Part shown: piece by piece, positions 41,311 to 53,739 of the stretch | How the letters are laid out: the number at the start of each line of letters is the position of its first letter | How positions within the stretch are numbered: the stretch's first letter is position 1 | Source: a virus | Virus genome (UHGV): UHGV-0229283 | Strand: one strand, 5' to 3' | Length of the DNA: 64,000 nucleotides | Program-made: the position numbers and the translations under genes | Notes under the pieces: generated by a model | What the model saw: the letters and a program-made list of their open reading frames with translations, nothing else | Database searches by the model: none | Told to the model about the DNA's origin: nothing

Positions 41311-41548
41311 TTTTACATGATATTTTAAAATTCGAAATGGTTTTCAAAATCGTTTTTGAAACGGATTTCATCTTCCCTGCAAATTTTTAAATAAAGAGTT
41401 TTGGGAGTAGGTTATCTCAAACCTTTGTGGAAGCTATGTCGAAAAATGATGCACAAGTGTATGATTGCTATAGGTATCTTGGCATCAAGATTGGACATTT
41501 ATCTCAAATAGGCGAAAAAGATATCTCAAATTTTCAGGTAGAAAACTC

Positions 41549-41760
41549 TGGGTTCTCGATCGACTTTTCGTTTTCAAAAACGTATTTGCTCTCACTATCA
41601 AAAAATTTTTCTCTATATCAACCGGGTTCTCGATCGGTTTTTCAAAATCGAGATCGTAAATGTTTTTTCTCTAGAAAAAATTTTTCGGCCCGGTTCTCGA
41701 TCGAGATCTCAATTTCCAGATCGTATTTGTTTTCTTACGCGAAAAAATTTTTTAGGGGTA
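41549..41760. repeat. three tandem direct repeats of about 70 bp (GGTTCTCGATCG...CGTAWWTG...AAAAAATTTTT)
   Basis: Units begin at 41549, 41622 and 41688. Each starts with GGTTCTCGATCG and ends with an A6T5 tract. They sit in an AT-rich, palindrome-rich intergenic zone. Confidence 0.6.
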
Positions 41761-42131
41761 TCGCTCAGTATATCACATGAAAATCAGAAGTCAATATTTA
41801 AATTTTTTGTTGAATGAGAAGCATTCTTATTTAGTTATTTGAATGATAATCATTCTCATTTGCTGAATGACAGGCACCCCCGGTGTTTTGTACTCCGGTT
41901 TCAATGTTCCCGCTATGTGTATAATATAGGATACACGGCCCCAGGTTGCAAGCGTCTTTACAATTCTTTACAAATAGACTTTAGGCGAGCTACCGGCGAT
42001 CCACCTTCCAACCAGGTCTCCGCGCCTGGTATGTTAGCCCCGCCTTTCCGCCGTGGGGTGGCGTCTCTTCTCCTGTCTGATAAATATAACCCATGTCGGG
42101 GCCGTTTGCAAGCCCCGCGATAAAATATTTT

Positions 42132-42420: not shown

Positions 42421-42449
42421 ATTGACGGCAATTAGTAAAGCGCTTACTA
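42421..42449 (+). promoter_or_regulatory. sigma70-like promoter (TTGACG, 17 bp, TACTAT) for the first cluster gene
   Basis: Hexamers and spacing read directly from the sequence. Confidence 0.5.
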
Positions 42450-42497
42450 TCCATCTCATCAGGTCCCCCGTCGCCCACACTTAAAAGGTAAAATAGA

Positions 42498-42791
42498 ATG
42501 AAAATTTCCGCTAACAAACAATTGATCGACACTGTAAAAAATTATATCCGCCACCCGTATGAGTTCGGTGGGTATCCGAAAATTTTAATTATGCGTGATG
42601 GTGGTTGCCTTTGCTCAAAGTGTACGCATGAAAATTTTACCCGCCTATTGGAAGAATTAAGGGATGAGAGTGATCTGGCATGGATGCCAGCCGATGTGGG
42701 TATTTTCTGGGAAGGTGCGGATTTCCCATGTGGTAATTGCCAGACTCCGATCCCTAGTGCATATGGAGATCCCGAAGAAGAAGAAGAATAA
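42498..42791 (+). CDS. hypothetical Cys-containing protein with acidic tail (97 aa)
   Basis: AAAAGGTAAAATAGAATG initiation region. CLCSKC...CGNC cysteines. DPEEEEE C-terminus. Confidence 0.55.
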   Translation: MKISANKQLIDTVKNYIRHPYEFGGYPKILIMRDGGCLCSKCTHENFTRLLEELRDESDLAWMPADVGIFWEGADFPCGNCQTPIPSAYGDPEEEEE

Positions 42792-42799
42792 ATATTTAA

Positions 42800-42829
42800 T
42801 TGACACGGGCCAGTGTCCGGGGTTACAAT
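42800..42829 (+). promoter_or_regulatory. promoter with -10 (TACAAT) inside hairpin CCGGGGTTACAATCCCCGG
   Basis: TTGACA, then 17 bp, then TTACAAT. A perfect inverted repeat flanks the -10. Confidence 0.45.
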
Positions 42830-42879
42830 CCCCGGACCTGACAATCAAAACAAAAAACTACACAAATCGAGGTTACAAC

Positions 42880-43140: not shown

Positions 43141-43926
43141 ATGTCTACGTTTAAACTTAATAATGGTCTGGTTGTCAACTCTGAATCCGAGATCGTGCAT
43201 AGTGTACCTGGTAAAAAATCCACAGCAAAAAAGGGTTATGTATTATATAAAGGCCCGTCAGTCCTGGATAAGGCCCCGATCGTGGTCATTGCTACAATGT
43301 CAACCGCTAACGATAAAACAGGCGACATGGTTCAAACCTGGATCATGCGAGAAGATGTTAGCCCACTGGAAGCAAGCGCGAAAAAACTTGATTCCTCCGT
43401 TTGCGGTATGTGTCCCCATCGTACCAGCTTAAACGGCGCTTGTTATGTGACGCTACACCAGGCCCCACTGTCAGTCTGGAAGTCTTACAAAAAAGGCAAC
43501 TATAAAGACCTTGATTCTCGCGATCTGGTACATTTTGCGGGTCGTCATATTCGTTTAGGTTCCTACGGTGATCCGGCGGCGGTTCCTTTTGAGGTATGGC
43601 AAAACATGATCAACCATACGCAAGGTAATACGGGGTACACTCACCAGATCAACCATAAGAATTTTGATCATCGTATCGCTACCATTTGCCAGATCTCCGC
43701 CGATACGGAAAAACAAGCGATCACAGCATGGCGCAAGGGTTATAAAACTTTTCGCGTGAAAACTCCCAACATGCGCCGCCTGGAAGGGGAGATCACTTGC
43801 GTTAATACAACTCACAATATTAGCTGCTTAGATTGCGGCTTATGCGATGGTAAACGCGCCAACGTCGTGATCGACGTTCACGGCAGATCCGCAAAAAGAT
43901 TCGATAAATTCGAACGTATCATTTGA
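43141..43926 (+). CDS. hypothetical Cys-rich protein (261 aa)
   Basis: CGAGGTAAAAAGCAATG initiation. Several CxxC pairs. Confidence 0.55.
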   Translation: MSTFKLNNGLVVNSESEIVHSVPGKKSTAKKGYVLYKGPSVLDKAPIVVIATMSTANDKTGDMVQTWIMREDVSPLEASAKKLDSSVCGMCPHRTSLNGACYVTLHQAPLSVWKSYKKGNYKDLDSRDLVHFAGRHIRLGSYGDPAAVPFEVWQNMINHTQGNTGYTHQINHKNFDHRIATICQISADTEKQAITAWRKGYKTFRVKTPNMRRLEGEITCVNTTHNISCLDCGLCDGKRANVVIDVHGRSAKRFDKFERII

Positions 43927-43951
43927 CAACCGCCACACGATAACAGATAAT
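43923..43951 (+). promoter_or_regulatory. sigma70-like promoter (TTGACA, 17 bp, GATAAT) followed by 5'-UTR hairpin GCCGGGGAATTCTCCCCGGC
   Basis: Read directly from the sequence. Confidence 0.45.
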
Positions 43952-44269: not shown

Positions 44270-44274
44270 TATTT

Positions 44275-44303: not shown

Positions 44304-44345
44304 ACCAGGCACCAACAAACTAAACACTAAACGAGGTAAAATATC

Positions 44346-44858: not shown

Positions 44859-44917
44859 ACCGCTATACTGATTAAAGCCGGGGAATTGTCCCCGGCATAA
44901 CCTAAAAGGTAAACAAA

Positions 44918-45301
44918 ATGGCCTACATGAATAAAGAGAAGAAAGCTAAAATTGTTGAAGCGGTTAAAGCTGTATTGCCGAAGGGTTGGAAAGTTACGTT
45001 TAAAGTAATTCACTATTCTACGATCCGTTGTACCGTTCGATCCGCGCCGTTCAATTTGAATGATGTTTTAGATTTAACAGATTGGGAACGGGAAAACGGG
45101 CACAAGGATTTAAACACATACCACTATGAAAGATATTGCAAAACTCCTGAATTCAAAAAGGCTGTTGGCGAAATCATCGAGGCATTAAATACAGATAATT
45201 ATAACAATAGTGATATAATGACAGATTATTTTGATGTCGGTCACTATATCGGCCTACATTTTGGCGGCCATGATAAGCCATTTAAAAACAGCGCCGCGTA
45301 A
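44918..45301 (+). CDS. hypothetical protein (127 aa)
   Basis: AAAAGGTAAACAAAATG initiation region. Confidence 0.55.
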   Translation: MAYMNKEKKAKIVEAVKAVLPKGWKVTFKVIHYSTIRCTVRSAPFNLNDVLDLTDWERENGHKDLNTYHYERYCKTPEFKKAVGEIIEALNTDNYNNSDIMTDYFDVGHYIGLHFGGHDKPFKNSAA

Positions 45302-45886: not shown

Positions 45887-46189
45887 ATGCAAAAAAGTGA
45901 ATTTAGCGAGATCTCAGCGTAGCAATGCACTTACCAGGGTTACAGATTGAAGCGCTTAGAATCGATTTGAGGGCGTTTTAGATGGTATCCGATAACCGCG
46001 CCCCGCTCAAAACGTCGCAAATTTAGTTACCGGTTGAAACTAATTGCATAACAGCGATTTTCTATGCACATCACTGCATATGAGAACAGTTCTCAACAAT
46101 TCTTAAAAATATTTGTTGCATCCTGGCGGCGTTATGCTATCCTTTAATCAGTGGCGGAATTCACCGCCACACTGAAAAAGGTAAACACT

Positions 46190-46366
46190 ATGGAAAAGCA
46201 AAACATGTATAAAACGGCCTATAGTTCTGAATTTTGTTGTTATGTTGGGATTAATCGCGCTTGGAAAGATTCAAATGGTAAATGGATTTTTGAGTGTTCA
46301 AATGTGGCAAAGGGCCTAGATAATTTCCTTTTTCGTGAGTCAGAACTAGAAAAATTTTGTCTTTAA
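46190..46366 (+). CDS. small hypothetical protein (58 aa; start MEKQNMYK)
   Basis: AAAAGGTAAACACTATG initiation region. The longer track ORF starts at GTG inside a hairpin. Confidence 0.45.
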   Translation: MEKQNMYKTAYSSEFCCYVGINRAWKDSNGKWIFECSNVAKGLDNFLFRESELEKFCL

Positions 46367-46369
46367 TTG

Positions 46370-46399
46370 TTGACACTGGTTAATGTGTGGGGTTATACT
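46370..46399 (+). promoter_or_regulatory. promoter/operator module copy 1 (TTGACACTGGTTAATGTGTGGGGTTATACT...CACATTGACAAGTG)
   Basis: TTGACA, then 17 bp, then TTATAC. The -10 is flanked by the inverted repeat AATGTGTGG / CCTACACATT. Nearly identical to the module at 47870. Confidence 0.55.
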
Positions 46400-46444
46400 T
46401 CCTACACATTGACAAGTGAAACAAATAACCAAAAGGTAAACAAC

Positions 46445-46729
46445 ATGCAAAACGTAAAATCTGAAATCGCCGCTCTTGAATCAAAATTCCTGGGCAAAAT
46501 GGTGTATCATAACTATGGTCAAATCGCTTTTGGCGTGGTAACCGGAATCGATGATCGCGATCCCAATAAATTACGTTTACGCGTGAAGTTTACCCGCAAC
46601 AATACTCCGGCGCATATCAAAAAATATGACAACCGCGCGGATCGTGTTCGTTGCTTACTCCCTCAATCTGTTACCGTGTCCCGTGTTCAATATGGGATCT
46701 ATAATCAGACAAACCAGATCAACAAATAA
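46445..46729 (+). CDS. hypothetical protein (94 aa; start MQNVKSE)
   Basis: AAAAGGTAAACAACATG initiation region. Confidence 0.5.
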   Translation: MQNVKSEIAALESKFLGKMVYHNYGQIAFGVVTGIDDRDPNKLRLRVKFTRNNTPAHIKKYDNRADRVRCLLPQSVTVSRVQYGIYNQTNQINK

Positions 46730-46767
46730 TCAATAGCGGGGCCTTGCGCCCCATTAAGGCGGCTACC

Positions 46768-46986
46768 ATGTTTGGATTTATTATATTGGCTTGTCATATT
46801 TCTGTTAGTTCGATGGCATTACAATGTGATTGGAATGTTAAAAAAACATTCCCCACGGAACAGGCTTGCAACGTGTACGAAAACGAATACACGTTAGGCA
46901 AAGGCGAGCAGATCGGGATCTGCGATGAGTTAGACCCCGGCGTTAAAGAAGGCGATAAGCGCCCTATTCTCACCCTCAAAAAGTAA
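46768..46986 (+). CDS. small secreted Cys-containing protein (72 aa)
   Basis: ATG after TAAGGCGG. Signal peptide MFGFIILACHISVSSMA. Four Cys in the mature part. Confidence 0.45.
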   Translation: MFGFIILACHISVSSMALQCDWNVKKTFPTEQACNVYENEYTLGKGEQIGICDELDPGVKEGDKRPILTLKK

Positions 46987-46996
46987 GGTAACGATC

Positions 46997-47188
46997 ATGT
47001 TTGAAGTATTCGCGGGTATGTGCTTTTATGGTGCGCTGGCTTTAAAACAGTGTGATGATTATGTAGTAGAAAGCTATGATGATCAATTGACTTGCGAGAT
47101 CGTCGCCGTTGACTATCAGCGCCAGGGGCGCTGGATTAATCCGGCCTGCATACCATCGCCGGAAGTCGAACCGATGCCGGAAAGCTAA
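46997..47188 (+). CDS. small secreted Cys-containing protein (63 aa)
   Basis: Hydrophobic N-terminus MFEVFAGMCFYGALA. Cys residues. Confidence 0.45.
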   Translation: MFEVFAGMCFYGALALKQCDDYVVESYDDQLTCEIVAVDYQRQGRWINPACIPSPEVEPMPES

Positions 47189-47271
47189 AATAATCATTGA
47201 TCCCCCGGCCCGGTTAGGTTATATTACTTGGACCGGGCAAGATTGGCCCACTAACAAAAAGGTAAAATAGT

Positions 47272-47595
47272 ATGGAAAAGGCAAACAAATTTTTCTTTCT
47301 GGAAAATGTTAATGACAATGTTAATTGTGACTTTAATCGCCAGGGTGAAAAAACCATGCTAGTATTTTGCCATGAGAATGACAGCGAACAAACGGACCGT
47401 TTAACCGTCCTGATCCGTACTGAAAAATCTATTCAATCCCATAGCGGAAAACTTGAAAACCGCCACTTTATCGCCTACACGCTTGAAAGAAGCGGAGTAA
47501 CAATAAAACAGGCTGACAGCCTGCCTATAACTACCCCGGATCTGGTCTGGATGTTTACAACTGCTATTGTTAACGATGTTTTCCGTTCTAACTGA
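47272..47595 (+). CDS. hypothetical protein (107 aa)
   Basis: AAAAAGGTAAAATAGTATG initiation region. The preceding hairpin has TTATATTAC in its loop. Confidence 0.5.
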   Translation: MEKANKFFFLENVNDNVNCDFNRQGEKTMLVFCHENDSEQTDRLTVLIRTEKSIQSHSGKLENRHFIAYTLERSGVTIKQADSLPITTPDLVWMFTTAIVNDVFRSN

Positions 47596-47612
47596 TTGAG
47601 AAAATTAATCTG

Positions 47613-47651
47613 AAAAGTCGCTTGCAAACGTGAGCGACTTTTATTATATTT
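47613..47651 (+). terminator. rho-independent terminator
   Basis: AAAAGTCGCTTGCAAACGTGAGCGACTTTTATTATATTT. Confidence 0.6.
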
Positions 47652-47700
47652 AATGCACAGGGCGGCAATGGTGCGACGGCCCAAAATAAAGGTAAACGAA

Positions 47701-47865
47701 ATGAAACTTTCCCAGCAATTTGCTCAAGAATGCCGCGAAGAAGCGAAGTATTATTTTGATCGCGCCTTGCAAGCGAAAGCAGAAGGCCTGAATTATTCCC
47801 GCCGTGTTTGCTTACAGGTCGCTTTATTGAATCGCAAAAACGCCCGTAAATGGGCCGCCGAATAA
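47701..47865 (+). CDS. small hypothetical protein (54 aa; start MKLSQQ)
   Basis: AAAGGTAAACGAAATG initiation region. Confidence 0.45.
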   Translation: MKLSQQFAQECREEAKYYFDRALQAKAEGLNYSRRVCLQVALLNRKNARKWAAE

Positions 47866-47869
47866 TTTG

Positions 47870-47899
47870 TTGACACTGGTTAATGTGTGGGATAAGATA
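47870..47899 (+). promoter_or_regulatory. promoter/operator module copy 2 (TTGACACTGGTTAATGTGTGGGATAAGAT...CACATTGTCAAGTG)
   Basis: The first 25 nt are identical to the module at 46370, and the same inverted repeat flanks the -10. Confidence 0.55.
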
Positions 47900-47951
47900 C
47901 CCGCACATTGTCAAGTGAAACAAAAAAACCACACAAAACGAGGTAAACAGA

Positions 47952-50077: not shown

Positions 50078-50126
50078 TTATCTCGTAGGGCAAACAAACG
50101 AAAACAACTTAACGAGGTAAACGAAA

Positions 50127-52613: not shown

Positions 52614-53739
52614 GGTGATGGTAACACCCCGTTATTATTATGTGATTAAATGAAATTTAATGGTTGACAAATAGCAATAAATCACTTGCCAATGTGGGCC
52701 TATGGCCTATGGAAAGGCCTGTTTTTGAGCATGGAAGAAGTGTAAACTGTCAAGTGTTTTTATTATCGAAAATTCCTATCAATGCCTTGCGTGGCAATAA
52801 AGAAAATAGTTACTTATTGTAACTATTTCAATGCTTTAGCATTGCCGGGTATCCGGTCCGTAACGGGCTTATGTGAGAATAGTTATCATTGGGGAAATGC
52901 TCAAAGTATAGCTGTGTGTTAAACACGATTCTCTCTCCTTGTCAAGCTTTTATTTATAAATTTACAAAATATTTATATTTGCGGAATGATTCTCATTTCG
53001 AAATTGAATTCGAAATCGAAATAATAATGATTCTCATTCGTCATCTCATTCACAAAACAACCCTAAAACATGAATAATCACACATGAAACTATCACCACA
53101 GTAACAGTCACACCATGTAATGACCTGAAGCGGCTGGCCTATGCGTCACACTGGTAACATTGGGGCATTATTAGCTTGCTATGTGTTGTTGGTCAGTGCG
53201 TATAACGTGTTTTATGTTAAATGGTGTAATTCATATAAATATAAGCTTGTCAATAGCAAATCGTGCTCTAAGCTGGCAAACCATATGCTTGCTATATGTC
53301 ACATTTGATTATTATTAGTTTCGGCAAGTAACTATCATGCCTGAAGAGGCCCCGAGGAACCGGGAACCGGATCGACCTTGCCCATGATATTTTGTAAAGA
53401 TCCGTAAAAATATTTGACGCCCGGAGCTGTCCGTCTAGCACCGCAGATGGTGAGAACAGGATATTTTTCGGCAAGTGATATTTTCGGCAGGGGGCCTGTT
53501 TTGATTTCCCCACGGGGGAAGGGGTGGTTATACGGGGAAAACAGGGGCCTGTTTACGGTATCGACATATCGGGGAGTCCCTTCAGATTGTGTGTTAATGA
53601 AATGAGTACGTAGTACAATGAGAATCATTCTCATTTACAGACAACCGGGCAGGTCCGGTGATTGTTTCGTGCAGCCTCAGCACCTGTTGCTGTGTGCAGG
53701 ATAACAGGGTTGCCTATTCAGGTCAACCCCTTCGTGCGG

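Follow-up and report, generated by a model that had tools for sequence, protein, structure and literature searches.

Near-identical modules in the early-gene block of a Klebsiella phage are probably hairpin-embedded, PeSL-type promoter cassettes

Why would a phage carry two nearly identical promoter-like modules, each folded into an inverted repeat, in a block of small genes? The question is raised by UHGV virus genome UHGV-0229283, of which we analysed one stretch of 64,000 nt (the window). Near-identical 55-base modules lie on its + strand at 46367-46421 and 47867-47921. An earlier note, made from the letters of the window, had read them as a duplicated promoter that is gated by a dimeric regulator or by hairpin extrusion and gives two sub-operons a shared regulatory input. 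We came to a different answer: the modules are probably composite promoter/stem-loop cassettes of a Mydovirus phage, of the type called PeSL (promoter-early stem-loop) in T4-like phages. By megablast, the window comes from a Klebsiella phage of about 145 kb in the genus Mydovirus, subfamily Vequintavirinae, and is 98.5% identical to vB_Kpn_K18PH07C1 and 97% identical to Proteus phage Mydo. The modules sit among small genes of 50-260 amino acids (aa), in a block on the + strand at about 42.4-52 kb that we call the early block. Its products are hypothetical or match PHROGs of unknown function.

Both 55-mers quoted in the earlier note are present, one base to the right of where it had placed them, and its spacing of 1.5 kb is right, at 1500 nt from start to start. 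The first 25 nt (TTGTTGACACTGGTTAATGTGTGGG) are identical in the two modules and the last 18 nt (CACATTGWCAAGTGAAAC) differ by one base. The 22-mer TTGACACTGGTTAATGTGTGGG occurs exactly twice in the 64 kb with 3 mismatches allowed, for a chance expectation of 0.00 (100 dinucleotide-preserving shuffles). The earlier note had also proposed a search for further copies. Mismatch searches of the window returned only the two, but a covariance model built from 16 distinct modules of Mydovirus and Seunavirus phages, run with filters off, found exactly three members, at 42792-42859, 46362-46430 and 47862-47929. The third, diverged member has TTGACA at 42800-42805 and TACAAT at 42824-42829, the latter in the loop between the arms GTCCGGGG and CCCCGGAC; we refer to modules of this kind as the 42800 type.

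A promoter scan called TTGACA-18-TATACT in module 1 (11 of 12 positions) and TTGACA-17-TAAGAT in module 2 (10 of 12), and the alignment of the 16 modules bears out the promoters that had been proposed. TTGAC of the -35 and T25, A26 and T30 of the -10 (TAnnnT) are invariant across the two genera, the middle of the -10 varies (TATACT, TAAGAT, TACAAT, TATAAT), and the spacer keeps a length of 17-18 nt. Judged from the aligned sequences, this conservation pattern is the signature of a working sigma-70 promoter. The upstream flanks read TAA-TTG-TTGACA, GAATAATTTG-TTGACA and GAATAAATATTTAA-TTGACA, and AAAGGTAAAC or CGAGGTAAAC plus an ATG follow 25-35 nt downstream of the modules. Early promoters have been predicted in Vequintavirinae before, in rV5 (PMC3606486) and in Certrevirus, where the prediction for CB7, CR3, CR8 and CR9 is AAAA(N3-4)TGTTGAC(N17-19)TATAAT (PMC7344957). 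This consensus fits the AATAATTGTTGAC...TAnnnT of our modules, and the predicted promoters likewise cluster among short hypothetical early genes. No promoter hairpin came to light there: a term search of the two papers found neither "hairpin" nor "inverted repeat", and "stem-loop" occurs in the rV5 paper solely for the terminator symbols in a figure legend. A literature search for transcription-start data on Vequintavirinae found nothing relevant.

Each 59-nt module also folds as RNA into one interrupted hairpin of about 23 bp with the -10 in an apical loop of 7-8 nt. The -35 flank makes the outer 5' arm, the spacer makes the inner 5' arm, and the discriminator together with the initial transcribed region makes the 3' arm. 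The fold has -27.7 kcal/mol in module 1 (z -6.4) and -24.6 kcal/mol in module 2 (z -5.3), and none of 200 shuffles folded as well. The inverted repeat that had been noticed around the -10 is real, and longer than had been noted. The second TTGACA described on its far side exists in module 1, and module 2 has TTGTCA there; this stretch belongs to the 3' arm, and its partner there is GGTTAA. The suggestion that it is a functional hexamer did not hold up, as it is not conserved (CTGACA in the 42800 type). We also tried it as a tandem -35 and rejected this reading, since it lacks conservation, is followed by no usable -10 and is itself paired in the stem.

The hairpin is what the family keeps. In the inner 12-bp helix 95.7% of the cells are paired; shifting the 3' partners by 1-3 columns lowers this to 34-49%. 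Five pairs have changed on both sides, and 0 of 500 shuffles reached the covariation score. RNAalifold independently predicts 11 inner-helix pairs, 5 of them covarying, and the extended 23-bp helix is 87% paired. This agrees with an inverted repeat under selection, its pairing kept by compensatory changes. Across five unrelated arm versions (Table 1) the -10 hexamer always lies exactly in the loop. As the alignment reads, the arms keep their pairing and not their sequence, and the selected feature would be the stem-loop and not a sequence-specific operator.

The modules also differ in strand. In the AATGT subfamily, to which both window copies belong, the tolerated non-Watson-Crick cells that one strand would rescue are G.U pairs on the + strand (27 cells, with no A.C), and three further wobble pairs occur in a metagenomic module variant. 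In 11 of 11 AATGT-type modules, including both window copies, the + strand is more stable than the - strand. For this subfamily the pattern points to a structure selected on the sense strand, which means read-through RNA or the non-template DNA strand. Folded with DNA parameters, the + strand gives -13.7 and -12.7 kcal/mol (z -4.6 and -4.3).

The family is a small one and it belongs to this phage group. By blastn we found the module in 42 phage records, with one to three copies per genome. They include the Seunavirus records PVP-SE1, 4MG, SSE121, GAP31, FENT2, NINP13076, EC152 and KE22, where the alignment covers about 68 nt at 82-90% identity and leaves out the flanking genes. We scanned IMG/VR, metagenomes and 185,579 bacterial and archaeal genomes for the pattern and scored the matches with the covariance model. 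Most of these matches were due to chance, with 7 of 8 viral ones, 4 of 46 metagenomic ones and none of the 22 from bacteria and archaea confirmed by the model. The element is thus not of host origin, and none of the bacterial or archaeal genomes scanned has it. The two loop types, TTATACT and ATAAGATA, both occur in Seunavirus with the pairing kept; the TAAGAT loop of module 2 is found in FENT2 and in the second PVP-SE1 module. In FENT2, NINP13076 and a metagenome contig, differing variants of the module precede the gene of phrog_13696, which here follows module 1, and 4MG, PVP-SE1 and GAP31 have an AATGT-type module at the place of the 42800 type. Module 2 is itself a mosaic, with the 5' half of module 1 and a loop and 3' arm closest to FENT2, which suggests exchange within the module.

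All three members in the window end a cassette with a small open reading frame (ORF) that is present or absent among close relatives. We aligned the window from 41.5 to 53 kb to nine relatives and found that gene content of the early block varies strongly, with recurrent breakpoints at 42427, 43928|44271, 46197|46431, 46375|46369, 47696|47932 and 48766|49056. At the nucleotide level the junctions are the repeats AAAAGGTAAACA and AGGTAAAC, plus GTTGACA and TTGACG, that is, -35 or Shine-Dalgarno motifs. Cassette A, which ends with module 1, is flanked by direct repeats of AAAAGGTAAACA (46176-46187 and 46431-46442). K45PH128C2, VIK251, K54lambda1.1.1, Ro1 and AV124 lack it and have just one copy of the repeat. 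Cassette B, which ends with module 2, has AGGTAAAC on either side (47690-47697 and 47941-47948) and is missing in Mydo, KpS8, VIK251, K54lambda1.1.1, Ro1 and AV124. In phages that do not have cassette B, the 256-aa gene downstream would be served by a promoter at 47622. In K54lambda1.1.1, Ro1 and AV124, cassette C, which ends with the third member, is replaced, starting exactly after the -35 TTGACG (42422-42427), and KpS8 has an extra promoter and ORF inserted exactly after the GTTGACA of module 1.

The presence of cassettes A and B is independent among the relatives, some of which carry one copy and not the other, and a comparison of ORFs A and B found them to be unrelated. ORF A occurs in 14 Mydovirus records only and has no PHROG. 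ORF B was found in 7 Mydovirus records, with distant homologues (54-65% identical) in unrelated siphophages of 48-60 kb, namely Klebsiella VLCpiS10a, Kpn BU9 and Bacteriophage 15G / Pseudomonas phage 15b; this distribution is consistent with horizontal acquisition. The shared regulatory input that had been proposed for the two sub-operons is not supported, as the copies come from an old, shuffled family and each ends a facultative ORF cassette.

PeSLs were described and named by Arbiol, Comeau and Krisch in the T4-like phages RB49/phi1, PST/T4 and nt-1/KVP40 (Arbiol et al. 2010, PMC2839356; Comeau et al. 2014, PMC4122927). A PeSL combines a sigma-70 early promoter with a stem-loop, mostly in the interval separating -35 from -10 or over the -10, has G-T pairs in the stem, is AT-rich upstream and has a Shine-Dalgarno motif at its 3' end. 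PeSLs sit in hyperplastic regions of small, non-essential ORFans, at the junctions of insertions and deletions; the stem-loop lowers downstream expression, the promoter is very strong, and mini-circles between flanking elements were shown (PMC2839356, PMC4122927). The likeness to our modules is close. They too would have a near-consensus sigma-70 promoter behind an A/T-rich stretch that runs from the upstream stop codon, and they have a stem-loop over the -10 and spacer, G-T pairs, and a Shine-Dalgarno motif and ATG at the 3' end. They also lie in a block of small ORFans, at points where close relatives have insertions, deletions or replacements. As in PeSLs, junctions coincide with the elements: GTTGACA in KpS8, TTGACG at 42427, TTGACA at 43928|44271 and the Shine-Dalgarno repeats of cassettes A and B. 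There are also differences. Our modules are in the unrelated subfamily Vequintavirinae and not in T4-like myoviruses, which is a taxonomic and not a mechanistic limit. Their family is conserved at 82-90% across genera, the whole module is one long hairpin that includes the -35 flank, and many of the junctions are in the Shine-Dalgarno motif and not in the AT-rich region. Terminator and promoter activity and mini-circles were shown for PeSLs, whereas our modules are described here from sequence. A full-text literature search for PeSLs turned up no work on rV5-like phages.

If the modules are PeSLs, we would expect them to work as follows. Each would be a strong early promoter for the host sigma-70-type polymerase, made of an A/T-rich upstream stretch, TTGACA, a spacer of 17-18 nt and TAnnnT, and the stem-loop would be overprinted on it, with the spacer as 5' arm, the -10 as loop and the discriminator and initial transcribed region as 3' arm. 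The only segments of a promoter that are free in sequence are the spacer and the discriminator/initial region, and these flank the -10, so the -10 would fall in the loop. By the usual 7-nt distance, the transcription start of module 1 would lie near A46406. A transcript that starts inside the 3' arm cannot form the hairpin, so only read-through RNA from upstream or single-stranded sense DNA could do so. The hairpin would then act on the upstream message, as an attenuator or as a protector of its 3' end, and the embedded promoter would restart transcription for the next gene. Because of this restart, an ORF with its module would be a self-contained unit that can be gained or lost while its neighbours stay undisturbed. 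Short homologies for cassette exchange would be provided by the conserved motifs (-35, hairpin and Shine-Dalgarno), and the two copies would be members of an old recombining promoter family, each tied to a different facultative ORFan cassette. Attenuation, 3' stabilisation of upstream transcripts, RNA processing and recombination are all candidate roles for the hairpin.

Several observations weigh against PeSL-type cassettes. The 3' flank of the modules is A-rich and has no U-tract (AAGYGAAACAAA follows the hairpin), which makes classical intrinsic termination unlikely. Our terminator scan found no terminator at 46381-46411 or 47881-47910, and it does call the true terminators nearby (45861, 47613, 49701, 51662). 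We therefore rejected the modules as classical terminators, although, like intrinsic terminators, they have a stable hairpin between genes that follows a stop codon immediately. The sense-strand bias is not universal: it holds in the 11 AATGT-type modules and is reversed in the four of the 42800 type, in which the - strand folds better. The junctions do not prove that the motifs promote recombination, because purifying selection alone also leaves breakpoints at gene boundaries. The family is small, with 2-3 copies per genome, compared with the numerous PeSLs in RB49. The spacer stretch CTGGYTARTG is conserved beyond what pairing alone requires, which leaves room for a bound factor. Finally, promoter activity and use, the start site, the effect of the hairpin on RNA and the recombination mechanism are all things that we infer.

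One rival is that the hairpin is an RNA-processing site. RNase III or some other endonuclease would cut read-through RNA in the interrupted hairpin of about 23 bp, the upstream mRNA would keep a protective 3' hairpin, and the downstream RNA would have a 5' end near that of the promoter transcript. RNase III needs about 20 bp or more of mostly continuous double-stranded RNA; all 59 nt of the module fold as a long interrupted helix that reaches about 23 bp in the AATGT subfamily and is only partly conserved. The G.U pairs on the sense strand point to RNA, and the lack of a U-tract sets the module apart from a classical terminator. The early region of T7 has intergenic RNase III sites, interrupted hairpins of 50-60 nt that leave a 3' hairpin on the upstream mRNA. 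Our modules resemble these as 50-60-nt interrupted hairpins between early genes of a lytic, coliphage-like genome, and cleavage here would be by analogy; to our knowledge the T7 sites are not overprinted on host-type promoters. The outer helix is the difficulty. Its pair 14-56 switches between G-C (5 sequences) and A-U (4), which is partial covariation, but it is broken in 7 of 16 sequences, the 42800 type keeps its outer helix poorly, and RNAalifold keeps only the inner 11 bp. An inner stem of 10-12 bp alone is short for RNase III. We consider a processing site unlikely overall, but a rival to take seriously. Slightly less probable still is that the hairpin is a mechanistic part of the promoter and no passive insulator, either by gating the -10 through topology in an extruded loop or as an overprinted processing site. 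If the former or the latter were true, there would be a new class of promoter architecture across genera of Vequintavirinae, and with an overprinted processing site read-through and new mRNAs would acquire the same 5' end.

The hairpin extrusion of the earlier note is a switch at the DNA level: negative supercoiling or transient single-strandedness would extrude the hairpin, the non-template -10 would be single-stranded in the loop, and promoter activity would depend on DNA topology. Of the two gating ideas this one survives, as a minority mechanism to which we give little credence. The -10 is always exactly in the loop whatever the arms, the + strand fold with DNA parameters is also significant, and G.T is the least destabilising DNA mismatch. 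A cruciform, however, requires both strands to fold, and in the AATGT subfamily the - strand has A.C mismatches and folds clearly worse. The constraints of overprinting explain the place of the -10 more simply, and other stem-loops of the block are placed elsewhere, some within the spacer, some downstream of the start and some over the -35 (Table 1), which fits a role that does not depend on position. The other gating idea, an operator whose inverted repeat is bound across the -10 by a dimeric regulator from phage or host that shuts the promoter, fares worse, and we think it very improbable. An inverted repeat straddling the -10 is where such a site could be, the block CTGGYTARTG...ACAYTGACAAG is well conserved in sequence, and, by the Mydo annotation, a helix-turn-helix (HTH) protein and a putative anti-sigma factor are encoded. 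On the other hand, the arms covary, are replaced wholesale with their pairing kept and differ within one genome (the members at 42800 and 46370), and the one-sided G.U asymmetries would be meaningless for recognition of a duplex. It is this conservation of pairing only, in five versions and with sense-strand G.U but no A.C, that speaks against a dimeric regulator. The half-site spacing of copy 1, TGTGT-N15-ACACA, fits no operator known to us. The CRP site is TGTGA-N6-TCACA, and we rejected a CRP-like site as the spacing in copy 1 is 15 nt and not 6. A more general caution is that palindromes over a -10 need not be operators. That the second copy is a by-product of a recent, neutral local duplication and its palindrome has no function is hardly credible. 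Identity of the 5' half (25 of 25) would be expected from it, but both loop types and the pairing recur in another genus, ORFs A and B next to the modules are unrelated, compensatory changes maintain the pairing, and there are relatives with one copy only. The 1.5-kb deletion that recombination between the copies should give was in none of the nine aligned relatives.

Sigma-70-like early promoters in Vequintavirinae and PeSLs in T4-like phages are already known. What we did not meet in the literature is a covariation-supported hairpin that is centred on the -10 and conserved across Mydovirus and Seunavirus, or the association of such a hairpin with facultative ORF cassettes in Vequintavirinae. 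PeSL-type cassettes here would extend the PeSL idea to an unrelated subfamily of large therapeutic phages of Klebsiella, Salmonella and E. coli. The idea is that cassettes insulate small accessory genes and link them for shuffling, and its extension suggests a general, convergent design of phage early regions. It would also explain why phages that are otherwise 95-98% identical differ in gene content here, and it puts a concrete, covariation-supported RNA or single-strand structure at hand. The -35 box and the Shine-Dalgarno motif, as boundaries of the cassettes, would offer phage engineering natural, tolerated insertion points.

Table 1. Features of the modules, the cassettes and the early block, with arm sequences of the module versions. 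Positions are those of the window.
Feature	Position	Strand	Details
Module 1, full hairpin-embedded early promoter	46367..46424	+	outer stem reaches 46424; model 86.2 bits
Module 1 -35 TTGACA	46370..46375	+	also the KpS8 insertion junction
Module 1 inner-stem 5' arm TAATGTGTGGGG	46381..46392	+	within promoter spacer; alignment columns 20-31
Module 1 -10 TATACT	46394..46399	+	in 7-nt apical loop 46393-46399
Module 1 inner-stem 3' arm TCCTACACATTG	46400..46411	+	would hold the start near A46406
Module 2, full hairpin-embedded early promoter	47867..47923	+	model 80.0 bits
Module 2 -35 TTGACA	47870..47875	+	promoter scan
Module 2 -10 TAAGAT	47893..47898	+	8-nt loop 47892-47899; arms 47881-47891 / 47900-47910
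Third, diverged member	42792..42859	+	model 68.9 bits; RNA fold -21.0 kcal/mol
Cassette A, 255 bp	46188..46442	+	ORF A, module 1 and 5' untranslated region (UTR)
ORF A, 58 aa	46190-46366	+	
Cassette B, ~251 bp	47698..47948	+	ORF B, module 2 and 5'UTR
ORF B, 54 aa	47701-47865	+	
Cassette C	42428..42868	+	rest of promoter P42422, 97-aa ORF and 42800 module
Cassette C ORF, 97 aa	42498-42791	+	PHROG labelled "DNA ligase"
Gene downstream of module 1, 94 aa	46445..46729	+	phrog_13696, function unknown
Gene downstream of module 2, 256 aa	47952..48722	+	phrog_3628, function unknown
Stem-loop around -10	42800, 46370, 47197, 47870		early block
Stem-loop in spacer	44273		early block
Stem-loop just downstream of start	43923, 44842, 48694		early block
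Stem-loop over -35, with U-tract	47613-47650		early block
Arms, window copy 1			5' AATGTGTGGG / 3' CCTACACATT
Arms, KpS8			5' AATGTCTGGG / 3' CCCAGACATT
Arms, KE22			5' AATGCCTGG / 3' CCAGGCATT
Arms, 42800 type			5' GTCCGGGG / 3' CCCCGGAC
Arms, second PVP-SE1 module			5' GGTGGGGCTT / 3' AAGCCCTACC; arms unrelated, TAAGAT in loop

The rest of the early block is built along similar lines. Nearly every intergenic region has a strong stem-loop, often with a sigma-70-like promoter, and the placement differs from one to the next. Several promoters that neighbour the modules carry RB49-like CCGGGG-loop-CCCCGG stems. At 47197-47250, TTGATC-17-TATATT has its -10 in the loop of GCCCGGT/ACCGGGC, and at 47613-47650 a 13-bp terminator hairpin holds the -35 TTGCAA, with a U-tract that runs into the -10 TATATT; the sequences of both are unrelated to the modules. 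An A-rich 5'UTR is kept at 42847-42877, 44311-44341, 47918-47948 and 50092-50122. In front of many early genes this conserved 5'UTR closes with ACGAGGTAAAC (or AAAAGGTAAAC), some 6 nt ahead of the ATG, and its Shine-Dalgarno block is the commonest junction of insertions and deletions. The -35 TTGACA at 43923-43928 contains the TGA stop of gene 43141-43926, and four relatives have a deletion that starts exactly there and reaches the TTGACA at 44273.

An Rfam scan of 41-57 kb found no family at the modules. Its only match, at 44868-44925, is a weak one to the Avashort 5'UTR thermometer (E = 0.61; 24.5 bits, where the gathering score is 88) that overlaps a CCGGGG/CCCCGG stem-loop upstream of gene 44918 and is almost certainly chance. 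The deposited annotations of GenBank OY978784.1, OY978796.1 and OY979426.1 are out of register with their sequences, with, for example, a "tail length tape measure protein" and runs of tRNAs drawn over small early genes, so feature names under matches to these records are unreliable.

Repeats of other kinds lie at the edges of the early block. Just upstream of it, at 41548-41752, there are three tandem units of 64-74 nt (CCGGGTTCTCGATCG...AAAAAATTTTT) that are 67-77% alike, and similar repeats were seen in Mydo and other relatives; these may be iterons or an origin-like array. There are also 19-bp palindromes at 41813-41833, 41842-41861 and 53617-53636 (AATGAGAAT-C-ATTCTCATT / AATGATAATCATTCTCATT), a tandem pair at the left edge of the block and a third 11.8 kb away at its right edge. 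They resemble the Fur box, with 4 mismatches to the sequence GATAATGATAATCATTATC, and could be a true operator for Fur or for a phage HTH protein.

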